A stretch of 64,000 bases of DNA, taken from positions 18,681 to 82,680 of the IMG/VR virus record IMGVR_UViG_3300027983_000009, one strand, 5' to 3'. Origin of the DNA: a virus. A model generated the notes under the pieces. That model saw nothing but the letters and a program-made list of their open reading frames with translations, had not been told where the DNA came from and searched no databases. This document shows positions 7,149 through 42,999 of this stretch, one piece after another; the first letter of the stretch is position 1; each line of letters opens with the position of its first letter. Made by a program: the position numbers and the translations under genes.

Positions 7149-7196
7149 CCCAGCTTACAACGCAGCCTGCGTTGTTCTGGGGGCGAGTTGAGCGAG

Positions 7197-7229
7197 AGAG
7201 CGGGGGTTAATCCCCTCGCTCTTTTTTTG
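7197..7229 (+). terminator. Intrinsic terminator
   Basis: GAGCGGGGG-TTAAT-CCCCTCGCTC followed by a T-run. Confidence 0.7.
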
Positions 7230-7238
7230 TTTGGTCAC

Positions 7239-7265
7239 GCCTCTGTAGCGGCTTCATTTCTGCAG
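7239..7265 (+). repeat. Dispersed hairpin element, GCC/GGC class
   Basis: GCC TC TGTAGC GGCTTCATT TCTGCA G. Confidence 0.7.
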
Positions 7266-7292
7266 ACAAATATACAGAACTGGGTGTTCTTG

Positions 7293-7553: not shown

Positions 7554-7579
7554 GCCTGTGCAGGGGCCTCGTATCTGTA
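7554..7579 (+). repeat. Dispersed hairpin element, GCC/GGC class
   Basis: GCC TG TGCAGG GGCCTCGTA TCTGTA, 18 nt before ATG 7598; a degenerate relative lies at 6806-6831. Confidence 0.7.
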
Positions 7580-8323: not shown

Positions 8324-9604
8324 TTAGCTGGCCTTTGGTGCCAGGATGGCTAATCGCTGGAGCAGGGAGTGGATTTGGCCTCTGAGGTCCTGCTGCCCCT
8401 GCTCCAGACTGGCCACCCGTTCGGTGAGGAAGGTTAACCGTACTTCCGGGGCATCCATGTTGCAGACAGCATCTGAGTGCCGGCAGAAGATGTATTGGCG
8501 TAATCCGGGCTGATACCACAACTTTGGTGCCACAGGCTGCCAGATAAACGGTAATCGCTTCCCGGGAGCCAGTGTGAAGATGAGGTCCCCATCCTGACTG
8601 ACTTCGCCAGCGCTTAGTATTCTGTGTCTGGCCGGCATATCCTTCTCGGCTAGTGACAGCAGCCCGTTATGGGTTATTGGCTCTCCGAGGTAGACGGAGT
8701 ACTCCATGTTCCATCGGATAGACTCAGGGACAGCAGAATCCCCGATTGTTGCGATGGTGGGCGACATGTCCTGAGTGTTGACTGGTTTGTCGAAGACCTG
8801 CAACGCTGTACCGAACGTATCCCAGATAATCCCATAGCATGGTTGTCCTGTGTTATGCTGAATTTCCTGCATTTTCTTGCGAACAGCGATAATGTTACCC
8901 AGAGCAGTGCTCAGGGATGTCCCAGCGTTCGCATTAGCCCCGAAGCCCGGTCTGGTGTTCACGTACCAATTGACCCAATGCACAGGGATAGGGCGAATAA
9001 AGCGAGCGCTCTCTATGGTGACCCCTGTGATGGTAGTTCCGATCACTGGTGCGTTCACGTCAGCCCATTTATTGTTGTCTACAGCACTCGTACGCAGGTC
9101 TTTCTGTCTGACGACCTCACCGATCTGTAGATGTCTGTGTCCCGGAGGTGCGGATAACGTCCGCCACGTCGATCGAACAGGGTGTGCTACCATCGCACTC
9201 TGACGGTACATTGAATAGACAGCAGAGTTTCCTTTGACAGTCTGCTTTATGCTGCCAGGGTCGCTGTGCCAGTACTTGGAGACGCCAAGACCGTACCAGC
9301 AGACAGGAACAGGGATCCAGTGCCCCTGATGCCAGTACACAGCATCCTCAGAGATAACCTGATCCCCGTAGACGATCTTGTAGTCCTCAGGAGACGACGG
9401 AGCACAGAATAGCTGGAATGCTGTAGGAACAGCCTCAGAGTGCCAGAAAGCCGCAGTAGTGAGCTCCCACGTACCTGTGCTGGTATTACCAACGTAACAG
9501 CTGGGAAAGATGACCTCCCCTTCGGTCATCAGCCTGTATGGGGCCTTCATACTGTCAATTAACCGGTGTGTGTGAGTGGGGAAGGATTCTGCAGCTTCTG
9601 ACAT
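8324..9604 (-). CDS. Hypothetical protein with three internal [YH]R.L..GEV modules
   Basis: Long minus-strand ORF; GGAG RBS before MSEAAESF. Confidence 0.7.
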   Translation of the reverse strand: MSEAAESFPTHTHRLIDSMKAPYRLMTEGEVIFPSCYVGNTSTGTWELTTAAFWHSEAVPTAFQLFCAPSSPEDYKIVYGDQVISEDAVYWHQGHWIPVPVCWYGLGVSKYWHSDPGSIKQTVKGNSAVYSMYRQSAMVAHPVRSTWRTLSAPPGHRHLQIGEVVRQKDLRTSAVDNNKWADVNAPVIGTTITGVTIESARFIRPIPVHWVNWYVNTRPGFGANANAGTSLSTALGNIIAVRKKMQEIQHNTGQPCYGIIWDTFGTALQVFDKPVNTQDMSPTIATIGDSAVPESIRWNMEYSVYLGEPITHNGLLSLAEKDMPARHRILSAGEVSQDGDLIFTLAPGKRLPFIWQPVAPKLWYQPGLRQYIFCRHSDAVCNMDAPEVRLTFLTERVASLEQGQQDLRGQIHSLLQRLAILAPKAS

Positions 9605-9748
9605 CTGTTGTACTCCCTGTGTTTTGCGTTGCTGGCACGGATATGCCTCTGCGGTCTTGTGTTCTTCGCCTCTGTGTGGCAGACTATAACCCTGAACTCC
9701 ACCCCTTGCTACCAATCAAGTCAAACCAGCGGAAACAAAGGATTTATT

Positions 9749-11014
9749 ATGTCGGATGCACTTGCAGCGATCAGGGCGTGGAGAAAAAGTGCACTTGTTT
9801 CGCCAATGGTTGCACCGGGTAACACAGCACCAAGACAGCAGCCCGGGGCACGACATGTGATGGGGAGTGGAATACCGCAAACAGGGCTTTCGACGCAGCG
9901 AGGAAAGGCTCCAGCGTTTCCAGGGTTGCCAGGAAGTCCAGCAGGAAATCCCATAGAGACACACGGAGCGTTGGGGCCGGCTGGGACTGTGGATGGCAAC
10001 CACGCAGCAGGTGTAGCGAAAGGATTTAAGATTGGCAGGGCAAGGCTTGCGGAGAAGGGTATGCAGGCAACTTCTTCTGGGAAAATCAATGTTTTTAGTA
10101 AAGATTCATCCCAGCTCCGCGGGTTCGTAGCAGGGCAGAGGAAGACTGCAGGCATGTATGCGGCTCATATTGTCTCGGCAAACCTACCACCTGAGCAGCG
10201 CAAGCAACTACTTGCGATAGCGAAGAACGTGGCCAGGTTTCGCCAAGCTATCGCGACAGATATGTCATCGCAGGGTTATCAGTCGTACGCTGGTGGAAGC
10301 ACAAACTTCCGTGACGACATACTTGAGCAGTTTCTGGAAAAGAACAAGGATGCACAGGTGGAGGCTGGCGATTCTTATGAGATATCTGCGAGAGGTCCTC
10401 GTCGGTGGATGGGTTTGCGACAAGGTGCACGTATTCCGATTGGGGAGGGTTACGCGACGTTAATGGATCATTTTGATGAGGGTGGGCAGGGGTATGAGCG
10501 TGACGAGTCTCATGCTGTAACAGATTTTTACGGCGAGGTGGATCCCGCTATTCACAGCTTTTTAGGTCAGATGACAGGCGGCCGCTACAAAACACCGAAA
10601 CCTCCGAAGGCACCATCTGCTCCGAAGTTAGAGGGTGTACCGGCGATAAAGGCGGCATTCAGACAACCGACTGATGTGTCGCCATACGCAGGTATTCATC
10701 GACGGATTCGCCACACTCTGGCGGGTGGTGCGATGGGCGGGTTAGTTGGTGTTGGGGTTGGTGGTTTAACTGGGGCTGGCGGGGCTGCCGGTGCCACAAT
10801 TGGCGGGCTGCACGGCATGTTTAGCGATCCGGGTGTAGATGAGGAGGGCAAGAAGCGGAGCCGGATGATGGCTGCACTTCGTGGTTCTCTGGGTGGTGGG
10901 GCGTTGGGTGCAGCTGGCGGATTGGCAGCTGGTGTTGGCGGGCTGGCTGGTGGTGCAGCTGGCGGCACAGTCGGGGCCAGCATCGACGACTGGCCCGTGG
11001 CGCCGCAGCTGTGA
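9749..11014 (+). CDS. Hypothetical Gly/Ala-rich protein with a glycine-zipper C-terminus (possibly virion-associated; may be two fused genes)
   Basis: AAGGA RBS; GGxxG hydrophobic repeats; hairpin element inside the ORF at 10110. Confidence 0.65.
   Translation: MSDALAAIRAWRKSALVSPMVAPGNTAPRQQPGARHVMGSGIPQTGLSTQRGKAPAFPGLPGSPAGNPIETHGALGPAGTVDGNHAAGVAKGFKIGRARLAEKGMQATSSGKINVFSKDSSQLRGFVAGQRKTAGMYAAHIVSANLPPEQRKQLLAIAKNVARFRQAIATDMSSQGYQSYAGGSTNFRDDILEQFLEKNKDAQVEAGDSYEISARGPRRWMGLRQGARIPIGEGYATLMDHFDEGGQGYERDESHAVTDFYGEVDPAIHSFLGQMTGGRYKTPKPPKAPSAPKLEGVPAIKAAFRQPTDVSPYAGIHRRIRHTLAGGAMGGLVGVGVGGLTGAGGAAGATIGGLHGMFSDPGVDEEGKKRSRMMAALRGSLGGGALGAAGGLAAGVGGLAGGAAGGTVGASIDDWPVAPQL
10110..10136 (+). 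repeat. Dispersed hairpin element, CCC/GGG class
   Basis: CCC AG CTCCGC GGGTTCGTA GCAGGG C. Confidence 0.75.
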
Positions 11015-11388
11015 GCTCTCACATATACGCTCTCACATATACTCTCTCACAGCACATTTTGACAACAATCCCAGCCTTGCGGGTTCGTAGCAGGATAACA
11101 GGGGGCCAAAGTATACAGCTCCTCACATATACTCTCTCACGTATACGCTCTCACAGCAATCCCAGCCAGGCGGGTTCATAGCACGGCAACTGCACAAGTC
11201 CTCACATATACTCTCTCACAACAATCCCAGCTCTGCGGGTTCGAAGCAAGGCATGAACAGGGTTGTCACAGTGCACAATTCCTCACATATACGCTCTCAC
11301 AGCAATCCCAGCCAGGCGGGTTCATAGCACGGCAGCACAGTCCAGGATCCACAATAACAATCCCAGCCTTGCGGGTTCGAAGCAGGGC
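11015..11388 (+). repeat. Array of five hairpin repeats with variable intervening sequence (atypical, CRISPR-like)
   Basis: CAATCCCAGCYNNGCGGGTTCRWAGCANGG with CCC starting at 11070, 11161, 11226, 11307 and 11362; secondary CTCACATATAC[GT]CTCTCAC repeats between units. Confidence 0.85.
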
Positions 11389-11425
11389 ATCGCGTGCAGC
11401 CGGACAAACAAGCACAGGAGAAAAC

Positions 11426-12571
11426 ATGTTCAACAACCTCACGGATCTGCGGGCAGTCCACTGTCTATATGTGTTGACGCATCCGGATAGCCAGCTACAG
11501 AAGCAGGCCATCAACATGAAGGGTCTTTCCAAAGTCCTGTCCCGTACAGCCTCCAAAACAATGGGCAGGCCTGTGGCAGGACCTGGAGCTGCACCGATAC
11601 AGTCGCCGGTCAGGCAGATGCGTGTGCCTACACCGGCGCAGCAGAAATCAATCACCACATCAATGGCGACCAAGGTACCGCCGCCACCAGCCAAGTCGTT
11701 GGCGACCAGAGCTGTAGCAGCTGTGACACCTGCTGTGAAGGCTGTCGCGGCACCCAGATCGAGACCGGCACCAGCGTTGGTAGAAGCGAACATAGGCAAA
11801 CCTTTGCCGAGTCGTGCTGGTAGAGCCCTCAACACTGTCGCTAACGTGCCTGCAGGTGAGAGATTTCGCCAGAGGCCAGTCATGAACACAGCAAAACTGC
11901 TGTCCGCTGACGGTGTGCCGGGTATGCGTAGGCTGAATCAGGCCGCGGCTGCCGGCTTGGTGTATTCGGGAGCTCGGGGCCTCAGTGATGCGAATCAGGC
12001 TGTGAACGATTCGATCTACAACACGACCAGCGATTATGGTGTGCAGGCTGGGCTGACACCTAATCAGAGAAGGAGGCTGAGTGAGCAGGGGCAGAAGGTC
12101 AAGCAGTACACGTTGCAGGATGCAACCCTCGGGAGACTGAAACGAAATATTTTCGGTCATGGGGGTGACGAGGCTGCTGTAACCGCATCTAAATACAGAG
12201 ATGAGTTGTACGGCTTGGCGTTGAATGATGCGATGAAATATCAACTCTCTAAACCTGCTGTGGGTCGCGGTATGTTGGATTCCCTAATGCATTACAGAAG
12301 CCCGGCTGCTGCAGCTGTGTCAGGTGTGCAGCAGGCGGGTAAAAACTATCTGGGTGGTCATATGGAGTACAACGATCCAGCTGCGTACGCTGGGCCGATA
12401 CAGCAAATGTACTCTACTATGAGGCCAGAAAACGAGCAGGATGCTAAGGATATGGCAGCAGCTGCTGTTCAAGGCGGCTGGAAACACCTGACACCAGAGC
12501 AGCAGCGGAAGCTGATTGAGAAGGTTGGACCGGCTGCAATAGCAGCAATGACTGCAAGTGTCGGCAGGTGA
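11426..12571 (+). CDS. Hypothetical Ala/Pro-rich protein
   Basis: AGGAG RBS then ATG at 11426, directly after the array. Confidence 0.75.
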   Translation: MFNNLTDLRAVHCLYVLTHPDSQLQKQAINMKGLSKVLSRTASKTMGRPVAGPGAAPIQSPVRQMRVPTPAQQKSITTSMATKVPPPPAKSLATRAVAAVTPAVKAVAAPRSRPAPALVEANIGKPLPSRAGRALNTVANVPAGERFRQRPVMNTAKLLSADGVPGMRRLNQAAAAGLVYSGARGLSDANQAVNDSIYNTTSDYGVQAGLTPNQRRRLSEQGQKVKQYTLQDATLGRLKRNIFGHGGDEAAVTASKYRDELYGLALNDAMKYQLSKPAVGRGMLDSLMHYRSPAAAAVSGVQQAGKNYLGGHMEYNDPAAYAGPIQQMYSTMRPENEQDAKDMAAAAVQGGWKHLTPEQQRKLIEKVGPAAIAAMTASVGR

Positions 12572-12616
12572 CGCCAACGCATCACAGTAAACAGTAAACA
12601 GTATAGGAGGCAGAGT

Positions 12617-12847
12617 ATGCAGATAACACTGGCAGCCAGGTCGTCGACAACTGCGGTATCTCTTCGGCTGTACAGAGTGCTAGCACAGGACAGAGAGTGG
12701 TCTTCTGTGAATTATGTGCGGGCAGCTGACGAGGGTCACGCCGTCACGTGCGTCAGGAATACGAATCAGGATCTGTACAATAATAGCCGTGTGTGGTTCA
12801 GTGTGACCATACAGGATGATTCCAAAGGAGTCGTGTTCAGAAGATAG
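12617..12847 (+). CDS. Hypothetical protein
   Basis: AGGAGG RBS, 76 aa. Confidence 0.65.
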   Translation: MQITLAARSSTTAVSLRLYRVLAQDREWSSVNYVRAADEGHAVTCVRNTNQDLYNNSRVWFSVTIQDDSKGVVFRR

Positions 12848-12904
12848 TGTGCTGCGAGTTAGTATTGCAGCACTAAACCTCATTAAACAGAAAGCAGTAA
12901 ACAG

Positions 12905-15900
12905 ATGAAGCAGGTGAAGTTAGAAAAACTCACACAAGAACAGATCGCGCAGCTCCCGCTGCACACAGAGAAATGGTTGGAGATAGGGCTATCATGTGAG
13001 CCGTGCGATTTCGAGAAGGCCAAAGCGGCTGCAATCGAGTGCTACGTAGCAGCTGGGCTGGAGCCGCCCAAATTGTTTCTTCTTTTCGATTCGCCCATAG
13101 CGGCGGCTATGGGGGCGGTAGCACTGCAGTCTATTGCCTCGGATCAAGGTATGGAGCGGCTCCAGCACCAGCTCAGGAATAAAATCTTGGCGAAGGCCTG
13201 GGCGCAGGTCAGTGATCAGGTCGGTGCGAAGGTACGGGATCATGTCAAGGGACAGGTCGGCGATAGGATCGTGTATCAGATCTGGCAGACGGTCCGGGAT
13301 TCTCTCACTGCTCAGGTCGGTGATCGTGTCGATGCTCAGGTCAGCGAGCAGGTCACCGAGCAGGTCGGTAAGCAGATCAGGAATCAGCTCGCTGAGCAGG
13401 TCTTGGCTCAGCTCGACAACCAGGTCAGTGCTCAGGTCAGTTCTATGATCAACGATCGGGTCACGTGGTCGGTACGGGATATGGTCAACGGGGGGGTCAG
13501 TGATATGATCCGCGAGCAGGTCACGTGGCCGGTACGGGATATGGTCAACGAGGAGGTCTCGGATCAGGTCCGGAATCAGCTCACTGATCAGGTCTTGGAG
13601 CCGGTCGGTGATGCGATCCACTCGCAGGTCTCGGAGCTGCTACGGGAGCAGATCTGGGAGCAGGTCCGAGATCAGATCTGGGGTCGGATCGATACTCAGA
13701 TCCGTGATCATATCCGGGAACAGGTCGGCGATGATATCAGTGAGCAGATATGGGAGGCGGGCAATGCTACGCTCGCGGTTCGGGATCAGCTCTTGAGGCC
13801 GGTCCAGGATCAGGCCTGGGAGGTAGCCCAAGAGGCGATTGCGCATACTCCAGGCGAGAAAGTCAGCGATCAGGTACAGGTTAAGGTCTTGGGGCAGATC
13901 TGGGGTAAGCTCTGCGAGGAGCTCAGTAGTGAAGTCTTGGATCAGGTCATGAATCATGTCGTCGAGCCGGTCGAGCCGGTTATGTCGCAGATCCGGGACC
14001 GAATCCGGGAACAGGTCGGCGAGCAGGCCCAGGATCAGGCCAGTGCGGGGGTCCGCATTCAGGTCGATGCGCATGTCAGGTATGGGGTCACCGAGCCGGT
14101 CGGTGAGCAGGTTGGTACTCGTGTCTGGGGGCAGGTCTGGGCTGAGGCCAATAACCAGGTCAGTAATCAGGTCGCTGCACAAATCAGTGAGCTGATCAGT
14201 GGGCAGGTCGGTGAGCATGTCTGGGGTAAGGTCCGTGGTCCGGTCTCGGCTCAGGTACGCGAGAGCGTCGGTGAGCAGATCCAGGAGCAGGCTTGGAAGC
14301 AGGCCAGCGAGCAGACCCTTGAGGAGGTCGGTGATCAGGTCTCGGAGCCGCTCAGCGAGCCTGTCCGTGGGATGATCCGGGATCACGTCTTGGGTCAGGT
14401 TATTGATCAGATCCATGAGCAGATCAGCGAGACGGTCCGTAGGGTGATCCTGGGGCAGGTCAGCGGGCAGGTTCGGGAGCAAGTCTGGGAGCAGATCCGG
14501 ATGCGCGTCAGCGGTCAGGTCGGCGAGCAGGTCCGGGATACTGTCTCGGGTCAGGTCCATGAGCTGGTCAGCGAGACGACCATGGAGCAGGTCGGTGATC
14601 AGGTCTGGGGTCGGGTCATGAACACTGTAGGTGCACAGGCCCGGGCAGGGGGCCAGAATCAGGATTCGACTTGGGATCGGGTACAGGTTAAGGTCTTGGA
14701 GACTGTAGCGGATACGGTACGAGAGCAGGTCTTGAATCAGCTCAACGATCAGGTCTTGGAGCAGGTAGGTATGCCGGTATTGGCGCAGATCCAAAATCAG
14801 GCTCGGGAACAGGTCGGTGGTCAGGTCAGTGATCAGGTCAGTGATAGGGTCAGTGATCAGGTCAGTGATGAGGTTCGTGCGGAGGTCTCAGCCCGGGTCC
14901 GGAATTCGATCTGGGATCAGGTCATGGAGCAGGTCCGGCATCAGGTCGATGCGGATGTCAGGGATCTGGTCGGCGGGCAGATCCAAGAGCAGACCTCGGG
15001 GCAGGTCAGAAATCAGGTCTGGGCTCAGACCTGGGATAAGGCCTGGGAGAGTATCAACGCGACGATCCGGGAGAAAATCAGCGAGCAGGTCCGAGAGCAG
15101 CTCAAGGATCCGGTCAGGACTCAGGTCTGGGATCAGCTCCGGAGTCCGATCTGGGGGCAGGTCCGAGATCAGGTCGGCGAGCCGGCCATGGAGCAGGTCG
15201 TGGATCAGGTCTCGAATAAGGTCTCTGATCAGGTCAACACGGCGATCATGGATCAGGTCCGGGGGCAGGCCCGGAAGCAGACCCAGGAGCAGACCCCGGA
15301 GCAGTTACGAGAGCAGCTCCTGAATAAGGTCAGCGATCAAGTTTTTGGATCGCACGACGTAGGGTGGTTATCTTATTACGCATTTTTCCGCGAGCATTGC
15401 GGGTTAACGGAGGCTACAGATAAACTTTCCGGACTGCTTGAGCTGGCCAAGAACTGTGGCTGGTGGGCACCGTATAAGGGTGTGTGCATTTTTCAGCACC
15501 GGCACAGTGAGCTGCACCGAGATGAAGCGGGGCGACTGCACAACGAGACAGGGATGGCGTGTCGGTACCGTGATGGTTTTGGGGTCTGGTCGCTTCACGG
15601 CATACTAGTGGATGAGCAGATTGTTATGCGACCGGAGACACAAACGGTTGCGCAGATCAACGAGGAGACGAATCAAGACATCCGATCTATCCGAATCACC
15701 CGGTTTGGGTGGGCCAGGTATATTGAAGAGTCTGGTGCGGTGTGTGTGCACAGCATGATCAATCAGATCAGCAACACACCAGAAGCGTTGTACCGATTGG
15801 CAGACAATTCACAGAGGCTTGTTGCTGGCTGTGTGACTGGTAAGATGGTTACGATGGGTGTCCCATCTACCATCATGACGTGCGAGCAGGCTCAGCTGTG

Positions 15901-31045: not shown

Positions 31046-31129
31046 AGCCCAGAATATGGTGACAACCCTGCCGACGTTCGGCGGGGTTGGCAGCAAGCAG
31101 CAAACATCAAACAGAGAGCAGGAATCAGA

Positions 31130-33121
31130 ATGACTGAAGTAACACGTAACTGGTGTTATGGAGCCAAGGCGCCAACGTTGAATGCCGACATGGTGGACCA
31201 CCAGCTTTGGCTGGCCCACAATTACAAGAACCGGCACATCGAGCTGGAGCGGAACAGGCGAATTACTGCGGATGCGTTCGCCAGATCTCTTCACCCACAG
31301 TTCGAACTGGATGCCGCAGAATATGAGGTTGCAGACGCTGCAGTGGATGCAGCGTTCGACCTACTTAAAGCTGAGCGGATTGCGGCACGGAGCCGTGTAG
31401 ACGCGACGCCGGCGGTTGCTGCAGCAATCAGGGAAGCTAAGCGGATCCGGTGTGATGTAGGTGCTCGCAAGAAAATAAGCTCGAGAGCTGCATACAAGCT
31501 GGTCAATGAGTCGCAGGAGCCGTACAAAGAGAGAGCTGCGGCTGAGACAGTTATTCCGGAGGGGACAACCCCTGCAGCTCGTGATCAGCTGATTTATCGC
31601 AATAGGTTGGCGATGATGGAGGCGGCTGGCGTAGATGCCGGCGCCAAGGTGATGTACGACGCCAGACTCGCAGCCCGCGAAGAGTTCCGCGATCTTGGGC
31701 TGAATTGGGGCACCTACCTGACGGTGGAGGCTGCGACAAAGGACTACCACAAAGGAGCACCCCCGGAATTTCGCAGATTTGATGGTCGCGGGTCCATCGG
31801 TGTGCAGATACAGGTAGGCGGAGGATTAACGTATGCTGCTGCTGTTGCCTGCGCGAATACGTTTTTGAGAATTCAGTTGCCACCACTATCTGAGCGGTTG
31901 GCAACAACAGGCTCGGACAGCGGCGTGCAGGCTCACGGGGTGGCGTGGTTAAGGATCGGCTCAGTCGGACACCAACCGATCTGGGCGACAGTCCCTTTTG
32001 TGTACAGTCGCGAGATTCCGCACGATGCTGTAATCAAGTGGGCGTACCTGGACAGGGTTCGTGTCGGCCAGAAGTATCACTGGAAGCTGCGGCTTAACCT
32101 GAAGACTTCGCAGGTCAGGAGGCCGGCAGAGAACAGAGATATGGTTGCAGCCCATCTCGGGTACAGGCTGGTAGGCGAAGAAATCCGTGTGCTGACAACC
32201 TTGGATACCAGCGGAGAAGTAAGCACCCTCTCCATCTCGCGGGAAGAGGTGGCAGCGTTCGGTTACATGCGCAAGCTGGAGTCGATCCGAGAGAATGCCT
32301 CGAATCTGGTGACAGCAGCTCTCGGTCGCTGGTCGCGTGTAGCTAATATCTCAGAGTGGTTCCAGGAACATTCGGACAACATCTCAAGGTGGCGAGGCCC
32401 TGAGAGGATGAGTCGACTTGCCCGGTCTTGGCGTGATAACAGGTTCGACGCAGACCAATCTTCGTCTGCAGAGATTCCTGAGTTTTTGGAGTGGGCGCAG
32501 CTCAAGCTGGAGGAGTACCGGAGACAGCCGCACTATCGGCCGACCAACCCGGATGATTTGACTACAGTTTTCGGGGTGGTAGAGTTCTGGAGGAAGTACG
32601 ACAAGCACCTGTGTGAATGGTCGGCGAATCAGTCGCGGAAATGTATCGCAAGGCGTGAGCAGCTCTACAGGACATATGCTGCTAATTTGGCCAGGCGGTA
32701 CAACGCGTTGGCGATTCCGGATGTTGACTGGGCCGAGCTTCGAGAAAAGCCAGCGGTCGACGAGACAGATGCGCAGAGCAAGGAATTGCGGAGATTGGCA
32801 TCTATCGTCTCACCGGGCAGACTATCGGCAATCCTGGTCGAGGTGTTCAGCGACCGAGCTCACAAGACAGCCGCTCAGGGGATGACTATCATCTGCAATG
32901 CGTGCGGTAAGGTCCATGAGTTCGACAAGAAGCAGCGTGTGACAACTTGTGTCCACTGCGGGGCAACGTGGGACCAGGATGAGAATGCTGTCCGCAACAC
33001 GTTGGCAAATGGCCTGGTAAAGCGGGCGAGGGTAGAGTCCAGAAACGGGGCACCAGATCCGGACGCCCCTGTGAAAGTGCGAGCGGTCAGACGGGACCGG
33101 AGGAGACCTGCTACGACGTAG
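31130..33121 (+). CDS. Cas12m (type V-M/V-U1)-like TnpB-derived RNA-guided effector with inactivated RuvC
   Basis: QLWLAHNYKN…ER; L.WGTY..VE; F.RFDG.G.IGVQIQ; RuvC-I VAAHLGYR (His in place of Asp); RuvC-II LAIPDVD; SPG.L; CNAC/CVHC zinc ribbon; RuvC-III WDQDENA. Confidence 0.85.
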   Translation: MTEVTRNWCYGAKAPTLNADMVDHQLWLAHNYKNRHIELERNRRITADAFARSLHPQFELDAAEYEVADAAVDAAFDLLKAERIAARSRVDATPAVAAAIREAKRIRCDVGARKKISSRAAYKLVNESQEPYKERAAAETVIPEGTTPAARDQLIYRNRLAMMEAAGVDAGAKVMYDARLAAREEFRDLGLNWGTYLTVEAATKDYHKGAPPEFRRFDGRGSIGVQIQVGGGLTYAAAVACANTFLRIQLPPLSERLATTGSDSGVQAHGVAWLRIGSVGHQPIWATVPFVYSREIPHDAVIKWAYLDRVRVGQKYHWKLRLNLKTSQVRRPAENRDMVAAHLGYRLVGEEIRVLTTLDTSGEVSTLSISREEVAAFGYMRKLESIRENASNLVTAALGRWSRVANISEWFQEHSDNISRWRGPERMSRLARSWRDNRFDADQSSSAEIPEFLEWAQLKLEEYRRQPHYRPTNPDDLTTVFGVVEFWRKYDKHLCEWSANQSRKCIARREQLYRTYAANLARRYNALAIPDVDWAELREKPAVDETDAQSKELRRLASIVSPGRLSAILVEVFSDRAHKTAAQGMTIICNACGKVHEFDKKQRVTTCVHCGATWDQDENAVRNTLANGLVKRARVESRNGAPDPDAPVKVRAVRRDRRRPATT

Positions 33122-33139
33122 TCGGTTTGCAGTGCACGT

Positions 33140-33166
33140 GCCAGCTCTGCGGCTTCATGGCAGAGC
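33140..33166 (+). repeat. Hairpin element 18 nt after the effector stop codon (candidate guide scaffold)
   Basis: GCC AG CTCTGC GGCTTCATG GCAGAG C, perfect 7-bp stem; shares CCAGCTCTGCGG with the array repeat at 11226. Confidence 0.8.
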
Positions 33167-33210
33167 AAAGAGATGAAGAGCGAATATATGCCTCACACAG
33201 GAGATAGCTA

Positions 33211-33414: not shown

Positions 33415-33471
33415 TGTATGTGTTCTGCAGACACGAAGCTGCAGAGGCAGTAAACAGAAAGAGGGAAAACC

Positions 33472-34994: not shown

Positions 34995-35020
34995 GCCCAC
35001 GCAGAGGCGTTATATCTGCG
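34995..35020 (+). repeat. Dispersed hairpin element
   Basis: GCC CA CGCAGA GGCGTTATA TCTGCG. Confidence 0.75.
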
Positions 35021-35067
35021 ACGTTGGCAAATAGCAGCAAACTAAAACCCACAACGGAGTATGCAAG

Positions 35068-37275: not shown

Positions 37276-37301
37276 CCCAGCTCAGCGGGTTAGTAGCTGA
37301 A
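37276..37301 (+). repeat. Dispersed hairpin element, CCC/GGG class
   Basis: CCC AG CTCAGC GGGTTAGTA GCTGAA. Confidence 0.7.
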
Positions 37302-41288: not shown

Positions 41289-41331
41289 ACCGTTGTGGTC
41301 TTGCAGTCGTTTTTGTTTTTTTGGCTGTTAC

Positions 41332-41398
41332 GCCTCTGCAGAGGCTTCGTGTCTGCAGCTGAAGAAATGAAGCCTCTGCAGAGGCTTTGTGTCTGCAG
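41332..41398 (+). repeat. Two tandem hairpin elements plus an overlapping antisense copy
   Basis: GCC TC TGCAGA GGCTT[CT]GTG TCTGCAG at 41332 and 41372. Confidence 0.8.
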
Positions 41399-41462
41399 AG
41401 GCAGAGATACTGCGCCTGCGAATGGTGCATCATCAGTTCACTGTAGCTATGTAGGGAGTAAC

Positions 41463-42194: not shown

Positions 42195-42509
42195 ATGAGC
42201 GTCAAATACATCCGATACACAGACGAGAAAACAGAGCCGGTAGCTCGCAAACCTATCAGCGTAGGTAAAGACCCGGCAGCACAGGGTTTCCTGAGGATGT
42301 TTGGTCAGCCGACCAAGCTACCAGGTCAGGACGACGAGGGTTACGGCGGCAAGATCACCACAGACAAGATGGTCTACGTCAACCGTAGTGATACTAGCAC
42401 CAATGGCAACGCTAGAGGCGGTCGCTGGTACCGCGTGTATGCAACTTGCTACGGCAATGCGACATCCTCTTGGGTGCTCATAGGAAAAACTCGGTACCAC
42501 TTACGTTGA
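42195..42509 (+). CDS. Conserved phage protein (GYG.KI.T..MV…RWYRVY..CYGN..S)
   Basis: AGGAG RBS; recognisable small phage family. Confidence 0.7.
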   Translation: MSVKYIRYTDEKTEPVARKPISVGKDPAAQGFLRMFGQPTKLPGQDDEGYGGKITTDKMVYVNRSDTSTNGNARGGRWYRVYATCYGNATSSWVLIGKTRYHLR

Positions 42510-42735: not shown

Positions 42736-42762
42736 GCCTCTGCAGGGGCTTCGTGTCTGCAG
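42736..42762 (+). repeat. Dispersed hairpin element at a duplication junction
   Basis: GCC TC TGCAGG GGCTTCGTG TCTGCA G. Confidence 0.75.
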
Positions 42763-42999
42763 CTTACGGCAATGCGACATCCTCTTGGGTGCTCATTGGA
42801 AACATTCAGTACCACTTACGTTGACCGCAGAGGCAGCAACAATGGTTACGGGAAATAAGGTGACGGTTAAAGAAGAGCACAAGAAGACCAAACAGCCAGC
42901 AGCTGGATACAGTCGACCACTTGGGGAGTCTTGTGCTGAGTGCGGGTTAATATTTGGACAGCACCGCCATAATTGCAGTAAACAGAAAGCAGGAAAATC

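Follow-up and report, generated by a model that had tools for sequence, protein, structure and literature searches.

A cluster of Cas12m-repeat-like elements between two genes of a freshwater phage

Two interleaved repeat families in an intergenic gap

The DNA considered here is a window of 64,000 nucleotides (nt) that comprises bases 18681–82680 of one 82,680-base virus record (IMGVR_UViG_3300027983_000009; linear and 57% complete according to CheckV). It stems from a freshwater phage that encodes its own copy of the non-cutting CRISPR protein Cas12m and that carries, between two of its genes, a cluster of repeats resembling those of Cas12m CRISPR arrays. The cluster fills a 411-nt gap between open reading frame (ORF) 9749–11014 and ORF 11426–12571, both of which lie on the plus strand, as do nearly all long ORFs of the window.

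Two repeat families are interleaved in this gap, namely a 36-nt unit present in five copies, which together span 11062–11389, and a 14-nt repeat. A repeat search returned the longer element as a 35-nt unit with five starts (11064, 11155, 11220, 11301 and 11356), confirming the five CCC/GGG-class units and their spacing of 91, 65, 81 and 55 nt as given in a preliminary description that a model had made from the sequence. That description missed a sixth copy at 10108. The 19-nt core ATCCCAGCNNNGCGGGTTC has six exact copies in the window—those of the five units and the one at 10108—and eight matches once up to three mismatches are allowed, a number reached in 0/100 shuffles (mean 0.55, maximum 2). 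Four distinct repeat versions exist among the five units, with units 2 and 4, which had been called identical, agreeing across 47 nt (11142–11188 = 11288–11334).

The 14-nt repeat follows the pattern CTCACATATACKCTCTCAC, whose six matches all fall within 11018–11300, compared with 0.03 expected by chance. Written as CTCACATATAC[G/T]CT, it stands ahead of units 1–5 in 2, 2, 1, 1 and 0 copies, respectively; the second repeat reported to precede most units is thus found before units 1–4 and not before unit 5.

The effector gene cas12m starts at 31130, i.e. 19.7 kb beyond the end of the cluster, in line with the roughly 20 kb noted earlier, and a structural match bears out its description as Cas12m-like (Table 1). 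Its product carries His at the RuvC-I position that is Asp in 23vw_A, and this His is invariant in 8/8 aligned homologues. A single repeat at 33140, just past the cas12m stop codon (33121), shares CCAGCTCTGCGG with unit 3, which substantiates the link between unit 3 and a hairpin behind the effector gene that had been drawn at the outset.

Table 1. Positions of the cluster, its parts and related features in the window (R2, covariance model built from the phage's 17 GCC-class repeats)
Feature	Position	Strand	Remarks
Upstream gene, 421 aa, Gly-rich C-terminus, without family	9749–11014	+	
Sixth unit copy, in frame inside ORF 9749–11014	10102–10137	+	stem 2 5/6
14-nt repeat, two full copies and CTCAC start, ahead of unit 1	11018–11050	+	TRF period 14, 2.6 copies
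Unit 1 (36 nt): ACAACAAT CCC AG CCTTGC GGG TTCGTA GCAGGA TA	11062–11097	+	stem 2 5/6
Variable stretch 1 (24 nt); final 12 nt resemble ends of stretches 2 and 3	11098–11121	+	
14-nt repeat, two copies and CTC, ahead of unit 2	11122–11152	+	
Unit 2 (36 nt), same as unit 4	11153–11188	+	stem 2 4/6, two central mismatches
Variable stretch 2 (12 nt), homologous to end of stretch 3	11189–11200	+	11270 site: 2/20 differ
14-nt repeat, one copy and CTC, ahead of unit 3	11201–11217	+	
Unit 3 (36 nt); 5′ half of stem 2 CTCTGC, as in repeat after cas12m	11218–11253	+	stem 2 5/6
Variable stretch 3 (28 nt)	11254–11281	+	
14-nt repeat, one copy and CTC, ahead of unit 4	11282–11298	+	
Unit 4 (36 nt), same as unit 2	11299–11334	+	stem 2 4/6
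Variable stretch 4 (19 nt); no 14-nt repeat after it	11335–11353	+	
Unit 5 (36 nt): ATAACAAT CCC AG CCTTGC GGG TTCGAA GCAGGG CA	11354–11389	+	stem 2 6/6
Leader of ORF 11426; AGGAG at 11416–11420	11390–11425	+	
Downstream gene, 381 aa, without family	11426–12571	+	
cas12m, 663 aa	31130–33121	+	PDB 23vw_A, E 3.1e-44; Cas12m2, E 2.9e-14
Solitary Cas12m repeat directly after cas12m stop codon	33132–33167	+	R2 34.9 bits
Solitary CCC/GGG-class unit, 21 nt ahead of a start codon	37268–37303	+	

The units share the layout of Cas12m CRISPR repeats

Loci of Cas12m homologues were gathered from metagenome and viral collections (24 + 11), and many of them are adjoined by CRISPR arrays. The 36-nt repeats of these arrays consist of 8 nt, the 5′ half of stem 1 (3 nt), a 2-nt linker, the 5′ half of stem 2 (6 nt), the 3′ half of stem 1 (3 nt), a 6-nt loop, the 3′ half of stem 2 (6 nt) and a terminal AC, a layout that can be abbreviated as 8-3-2-6-3-6-6-2. 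It agrees with two structural papers: in the CRISPR RNA (crRNA) of Cas12m2, a 6-bp pseudoknot helix joins positions −22 to −17 with −8 to −3 and is followed by A−2, C−1 and then the guide, the 3′ AC being read base-specifically by the protein (PMC10442227), and the handle of GoCas12m is a triplex-pseudoknot (PMC11013384). Fourteen canonical repeats, picked from 19 rows that had already passed a pairing filter, pair in 99.2% of their cells (98.8% of the stem-2 cells) and show compensatory changes at 9/9 pairs, with 0/500 shuffles reaching this level. Left out of this set were L017 and L023 (duplicates), L038:12423, L039:12095 and L041; the arrays of L018 and L024, the latter with a loop of 7 nt, had failed the filter.

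The 8-3-2-6-3-6-6-2 layout accommodates all five units without a gap, and it also describes the copy inside ORF 9749–11014 and the unit at 37276. Stem 1 pairs as CCC/GGG in 5/5 units, and a CAAT-type 5′ flank, an AG linker and a TTCGTA-type loop are common to the units and to canonical repeats, for example in L019 and L037. Across seven copies, 19 of the 36 columns are invariant, and variation is found in the centre of stem 2 and in the loop. When each unit was compared with 31 reference repeats, the best match was in every case the phage's own solitary repeat at 33132–33167, with 19–22 of 28 bases identical; random 28-mers of the genome reach at least 19/28 in 0.055% of 20,000 draws.

The CCC/GGG form of stem 1 also occurs in natural arrays. 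It is present in the L040 array beside a Cas12m homologue and in L058, a Brocadiaceae metagenome-assembled genome (MAG) in which an eight-repeat array beside Cas12m (E 2e-71) contains six GCC/GGC repeats and then two CCC/GGG repeats. The switch from one form to the other is a compensatory double change. The fit to the layout, the identity to the cas12m-adjacent repeat and the existence of natural CCC/GGG arrays together make descent from the Cas12m repeat family well supported, and on these sequence comparisons we regard it as very probable that the units are members of this family in which stem 1 has taken the CCC/GGG form.

The L058 array (L058:2843–3364) is itself uneven, being made up of 4 + 2 GCC/GGC repeats followed by the two CCC/GGG repeats, and its last spacers are short (15 and 32 nt). 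It was the only Cas12m array among six loci returned by a two-core scan of genome contigs. The remaining loci were set aside as a 39-nt coding repeat (L056), a plain 55-nt tandem repeat (L061) and other repeats without stem-2 pairing (L057, L059 and L060). A search of viral contigs with the core pattern gave 12 single-copy matches, which we attribute to chance because none of them has a second copy (0/12) and most lack stem-2 pairing (10/12).

Probable duplication and recombination rather than spacer acquisition

A canonical array combines near-identical repeats, a regular period and unrelated spacers of uniform length, and the cluster shows none of this regularity. Its intervening stretches measure 55, 29, 45 and 19 nt in total, or 24, 12, 28 and 19 nt without the 14-nt repeats. 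Nor are they fully unique, as had been supposed: the stretches after units 1, 2 and 3 have (A)GTGCACAAnTC-like ends in common, ACAGGG is common to stretches 1 and 3, and stretch 2 equals the end of stretch 3 at 18/20 positions. Such partial homology among the stretches points to duplication, not to the acquisition of spacers. Matches to cas1 and cas2 (PF01867, PF09827) were absent from the 57%-complete record (0 matches, with positive controls matched), and no other CRISPR-like array was found in its 82.7 kb. With four repeat versions, periods of 55–91 nt and no Rfam family at gathering score anywhere in the window, the cluster would indeed escape standard criteria, as the preliminary description anticipated.

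Contigs of four other public DNA runs (X4, X5, X9 and X10), compared over 9000–13000, allowed us to look at the same locus in related populations. A contig of X4 (836 nt, 0 other letters, at least 99% identity) joins 11141 to 11288 and thereby skips exactly 146 nt, which is the distance between units 2 and 4. The skip removes either units 2–3 or units 3–4; 47 letters at the joint are ambiguous, and at a depth of 3.5 the skip is possibly an assembly collapse over the 47-nt identical stretch. A 259-nt contig of X5/X9 contains a unit-3-like core, 58 letters that are absent from the phage and a unit-1-like segment; the latter differs by 19 substitutions and 13 inserted letters, the insertions lying mostly in stretch 1 and the 14-nt repeats. 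This rearrangement is present in two studies. In X5, X9 and X10, the genes on either side of the gap depart from those of the phage by no more than a few per cent. At a level of about 95% identity, therefore, the cores persist in the relatives, stretch 1 is heavily changed, and unit number, order and intervening sequence differ. The turnover of units that had been proposed as a check is thus seen, and stretch 1 is not invariant.

Taken together, these features make it quite probable that the cluster arose by local tandem duplication and unequal recombination, in which the 14-nt repeat took part, rather than by spacer acquisition.

The copy inside ORF 9749–11014 has changed as well. In X5, X9 and X10, three adjacent substitutions at 10116–10118 raise its stem-2 pairing from 5/6 to 6/6, in that the altered half of the stem now reads as in units 1 and 5; the encoded protein pays for this with changes at two amino acids. 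Either the RNA helix has been selected for, or the cluster has acted as donor in a gene conversion.

The same ORF harbours a larger replacement in the three runs, where 514 nt (10157–10670) give way to 49 letters, a net change of −465 that keeps the frame. The junction is 19 nt past the ORF-internal repeat copy, which is about one guide length.

Transcript context and search for targets

No sigma-70-type promoter was predicted on the plus strand between 9000 and 13000 (0 sites), which speaks against the row of promoter-type start sites that had been considered for this region, and no terminator-like site was found within 11015–11425. Given that the gap has neither, co-transcription with the flanking genes is the simplest assumption, and the cluster is probably part of an operon transcript. 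An RNA run that contains the stretch was not among the 13 runs listed. The suggestion of an origin region likewise finds no backing at the cluster, through which the cumulative GC skew rises steadily.

The comparison of the stretches with phage genomes, also recommended at the outset, returned no target. For the 20 nt that follow each unit, no further site turned up in the 82.7-kb record at up to five mismatches beyond the paralogous 11270 site and chance-level matches. A self-target scan with all 25 guides gave 45 non-self matches, mostly from the palindromic 41332/41385 repeats, compared with 8–27 per set for shuffled guides. Exact 20–21-mers of the stretches after units 1, 3 and 4 had 0 matches in IMG/VR; the stretches after units 2 and 5, as well as bacterial and metagenome collections, were not searched. 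Finally, blastn of 11015–11425 found no match among plasmid records and, among phage records, two at E 5—one phage filed twice—that match the repeat itself.

Unit 5 as a candidate Cas12m site

The explanation that we favour, at about even odds, is that the cluster consists of elements derived from Cas12m repeats, that it was duplicated locally and is now partly degenerate, and that it lies on an operon transcript, with unit 5 likely the working copy. According to this proposal, the units would have increased in number where they stand, through tandem duplication and unequal recombination and along with the 14-nt repeat, and the operon RNA would include the cluster. Unit 5 would present on this RNA an intact handle ahead of the ribosome-binding site of ORF 11426. 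To judge from published pre-crRNA processing by Cas12m, the protein could bind, and would probably cut, the RNA upstream of this handle, and cutting or binding there might uncouple or tune the downstream message. Units 1–4, with their chimeric, mismatched stem-2 halves, would be weaker sites or decaying copies whose number changes by recombination between populations. We hold the action of Cas12m at unit 5 more tentatively than the explanation as a whole, and put it somewhat below an even chance.

What singles out unit 5 is its structure and its position. It is the only unit with a stable fold (−12.3 kcal/mol, z −1.85), and it ends 36 nt ahead of the start codon of ORF 11426. About nine other solitary repeats of the phage, including those at 7554, 20023, 28692, 29960, 34753, 36732 and 37276, end 9–45 nt before start codons. 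Because unit 5 is intact and sited like these repeats, it is the likely working site. The CCC...GGG motif that the preliminary description called a hairpin amounts, in all units, to no more than stem 1 (3 bp) of the pseudoknot layout; as plain hairpins, units 1–4 fold at shuffle level (−6.5 to −6.9 kcal/mol, z about 0).

The proposal has to be held against a considerable body of evidence that weighs on the other side. Stem 2 is imperfect in units 1–4 (Table 1). In the CCC class as a whole (7 rows, 6 distinct), 88.9% of cells pair, a value that 65/500 shuffles reach, and the class is therefore without covariation support; its stem-2 cells pair in 83.3%, and no retention of pairing by compensatory change was seen. 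Unit 1 ends in TA and the remaining four units in CA, as opposed to the 3′ AC of 14/14 canonical repeats. A covariance model built from the canonical repeats (R1) scores unit 5 best of the five, at a non-significant 13.1 bits (E 0.33), followed by units 1, 2 and 4 at 8.4 bits (E 6.2 for unit 1, 6.5 for units 2 and 4); unit 3 is missing from its matches at E ≤ 10. The model built from the phage's GCC-class repeats (R2) lists neither any of the units (0/5) nor the ORF-internal copy at E ≤ 10. The cluster region as a whole is no more structured than its shuffles (z +0.35). Moreover, the X4 skip may be the assembly collapse mentioned above, and with the record 57% complete a canonical array could exist elsewhere in the phage. 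Lastly, descent from the repeat family, duplication and variability between populations can be traced in the sequences; transcription, Cas12m binding, cutting and a regulatory effect are all steps that we infer.

On several counts, then, the cluster falls short of a working type V-M handle. The GCC-class repeats of the same phage provide a yardstick here: R1 scores them at up to 26.2 bits (E 7e-5), and a 3′ AC is present in only 1/17 of them.

Alternative explanations

The cluster might instead be a functionless remnant of an older array, or of duplicated solitary repeats, that drifts and recombines neutrally. We think this unlikely, although it survives best among the alternatives. It would account for the incomplete stem 2 of 4/5 units, which carry no compensatory changes, for covariance-model scores that are weak or absent and for the variation in copy number and content. 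It would also suit the chimeric look of stem 2, in which the 3′ halves appear homogenised (GCAnGG) and the 5′ halves differ, as recombination between units would produce. Such a fate has precedents, since some mini-arrays were deemed degraded, non-functional repeats by Shmakov et al. (10.1101/2023.03.03.530964). Neutral decay is, however, at odds with the strong conservation of the cores outside the stem-2 centre and loop (the 19/36 invariant columns in seven copies), with their persistence in relatives of about 95% identity in which stretch 1 changes, with an ORF-internal copy that is kept in frame and gains pairing in relatives, and with a last unit that is intact and placed like other solitary repeats before a gene start.

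Somewhat less probable still is a working non-canonical guide array, the possibility that had been raised together with that of a decayed one. Cas12m would cut the operon RNA ahead of each unit and release four or five crRNA-like RNAs, whose 17–20-nt 3′ parts would guide the non-cutting protein to silence genes of the host or of rival phages. Such an array would grow by duplication and recombination of whole units rather than through Cas1–Cas2 and its crRNA-like RNAs would have relaxed handles; alternatively, these RNAs might titrate Cas12m off the roughly 20 solitary repeats and so act as a timer. In favour of this, the units are laid out like Cas12m handles and have the variable stretch 3′ of them, the side on which the guides of Cas12 proteins are found (PMC10442227), the first 20 nt after units 1, 3, 4 and 5 are mutually distinct, and content differs between related populations. 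Close relatives of the Cas12m (L015 and L037) have ordinary arrays beside the gene, and as none is present in the 82.7-kb record of this phage, the cluster is the only array-like locus there. Virus arrays without cas1/cas2 are known, too (10.64898/2026.09.14.751636). Yet the searches of the phage record, of IMG/VR (exact, for 3/5 stretches) and of phage and plasmid records by blastn found no target, within a scope that was exact or limited and did not extend to host genomes. Only one of the five units has a stem 2 free of mismatches and none ends in AC, the stretches have partial homology to one another and to the 14-nt repeat, into which the 'guide' after unit 2 runs, and the most intact unit is the last one, whose 'guide' is the leader of ORF 11426. 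What stands of the original suggestion is that the units are non-canonical or decayed and similar to repeats of the Cas12m kind; nothing shows that the stretches are guides.

A role as an RNA decoy appears quite improbable. In the manner of Racr elements—viral solitary repeats that mimic host repeats and act as RNA anti-CRISPRs (PMC10651486)—tandem variant repeats would mimic the repeat of a host Cas12m and soak up the host protein, with several tandem copies raising the dose. A bacterial Cas12m array whose repeats read CCC AG C....C GGG TTCG.. does exist (L058), but this match was partly forced by the search pattern. The phage also has a Cas12m of its own, the units are related most closely to a repeat of this phage itself, and the promoter that a Racr would have directly upstream is missing among plus-strand sites (0 in 9000–13000).

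An element that acts at the DNA level and has nothing to do with Cas12m, such as a set of regulator binding sites, origin iterons or a row of promoters, would fit two interleaved direct-repeat families in a non-coding gap and a 14-nt repeat that contains the −10 box-like TATACT, but is highly improbable in the face of the missing plus-strand sigma-70-type promoter, a 14-nt period that is out of helical phase, the lack of a GC skew turn at the cluster and its failure to explain the pseudoknot layout, the tie to the cas12m-adjacent repeat and the copy in a coding region.

Relation to known systems

The known elements to which the cluster comes closest are degenerate mini-arrays and solitary repeat units of viruses and CRISPR loci (10.1101/2023.03.03.530964, PMC10651486, PMC11656645). 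Such units, which include the RNA anti-CRISPRs, also lie off a full CRISPR-cas locus and lack cas1/cas2, their repeats are commonly degenerate, and recombination between repeats has been proposed as their source. The cluster differs from them in that the virus has its own effector, that five units stand in tandem, that the 'spacers' are related and that an extra 14-nt repeat is present. In addition, the searches turned up neither a promoter directly ahead of the cluster nor a target.

With the repeat/crRNA scaffold of type V-M (MmCas12m2 and GoCas12m; PMC10442227, PMC11013384), the units share the 36-nt layout and the position of the guide on the 3′ side. The (A/T/C)G linker, the CAAT-like 5′ flank and the TTCGTA-type loop, as in L019 and L037, are the same as well, and a cas12m gene is encoded in the same genome. 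The units depart from the scaffold in having CA or TA for the 3′ AC, in lacking the 5′ GT and in the mismatched stem 2 of all but one of them. As compared to type V-M arrays, four repeat versions stand in a single cluster, the periods are 55–91 nt rather than about 72 nt, and the distance from cas12m is 20 kb.

A 2026 preprint reports, as a first, a phage Cas12m with an adjacent array, that of MV-1 (MvCas12m; 10.64898/2026.09.14.751636). The phage studied here resembles MV-1, L037 and L015 in that its Cas12m is phage-borne and without adaptation genes, and in that the spacers have no identifiable targets. Those three, however, have one consensus repeat and regular spacers beside the gene, whereas here the position beside cas12m is taken by a single repeat, and the only multi-unit cluster is irregular and 20 kb away. 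Of the phage relatives found, L037 is the closest, with a Cas12m that is 47% identical; beside the gene it has an ordinary array of 9–10 repeats and one leader repeat, and no dispersed repeat copies were found in its 39 kb. A full-text literature search found no report in print of a Cas12m accompanied by solitary repeats, nor of its use on a phage's own transcripts. Should Cas12m bind unit 5 or the cluster as a whole, the locus would add a tandem variant-handle site to the view of phages as turning a DNA-binding CRISPR effector to their own transcripts.

The cluster is also an example of repeat-like units that multiply and decay in the absence of adaptation genes. In addition, it offers a natural series of handles (stem 2 at 6/6, 5/6 and 4/6; CA for AC) that could be used to map the RNA needs of this Cas12m. 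Taken alone, it is a modest finding, and the stronger signal in the genome is that of the well-paired dispersed repeats.

Neighbouring genes and other candidate identities

Neither of the flanking genes, nor ORF 8324–9715, belongs to a family in Pfam or PHROG, and ESM Atlas scores of the flanking proteins of at most 0.79 serve as leads only. Loci related by either flanking protein were found in neither viral nor metagenome contigs, blastn of 9000–13000 gave no match to phage records, and ORF 11426 has no match in five related viral records (0/5). A homologue search with the same ORF retrieved two proteins, itself and one at 34% identity; an identical protein is on record on a 143-kb contig.

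Several other identities were tried for parts of the cluster and rejected. A tRNA T-arm, considered for the GGGTTCGAA part, has unpaired flanks, and ARAGORN found 0 tRNA or tmRNA genes in the window. A small ORF across the cluster (11011–11181) was dismissed because relatives carry indels that are not multiples of three, and a frameshift signal at the ORF-internal copy because it lacks an in-frame slippery heptamer at the usual distance.

Solitary repeats elsewhere in the phage

The phage carries roughly 20 solitary repeats of the GCC class. In a set of 17, 97.4% of cells pair (96.1% in stem 2), 5/6 stem-2 pairs covary, and 0/500 shuffles reach these values; the set left out 41385(−), the antisense of a palindromic pair, and 33424–33456(−). 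Compared with these well-paired and covarying dispersed repeats, the cluster is tandem, of a variant class and mostly imperfect; unit 5 and the unit at 37276 share with them a position just ahead of a ribosome-binding site.

The excluded element on the minus strand at 33424–33456 is a further repeat-like match (R2 24 bits, E 7.5e-4). At 41324–41399, two GCC-class repeats are spaced 40 nt apart and have a palindromic stem 2 (TGCAGA/TCTGCA), owing to which the minus strand is scored as a repeat too. Of the solitary repeats, the one at 7239 (window 7170–7266) directly follows a terminator-like hairpin with a T run, which indicates that some repeats are located at transcript ends and not at gene starts.

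Two solitary repeats are followed by sequences that recur close by or near the effector gene. The 18 nt after the repeat at 34995 (35023–35040) match the cas12m leader at 31086–31103 with three mismatches; this site lies between the leader repeat and the cas12m start codon, and a possible autoregulatory guide comes to mind. The 18 nt after the repeat at 42736 (42764–42781) match 42449–42466, 315 nt upstream, with one mismatch. The latter site is preceded by acTTG, which resembles a TTN protospacer-adjacent motif (PAM), and could mark a self-directed guide or a local duplication. Outside the window, genome bases 1–117 consist of a 15-nt tandem repeat in eight copies.

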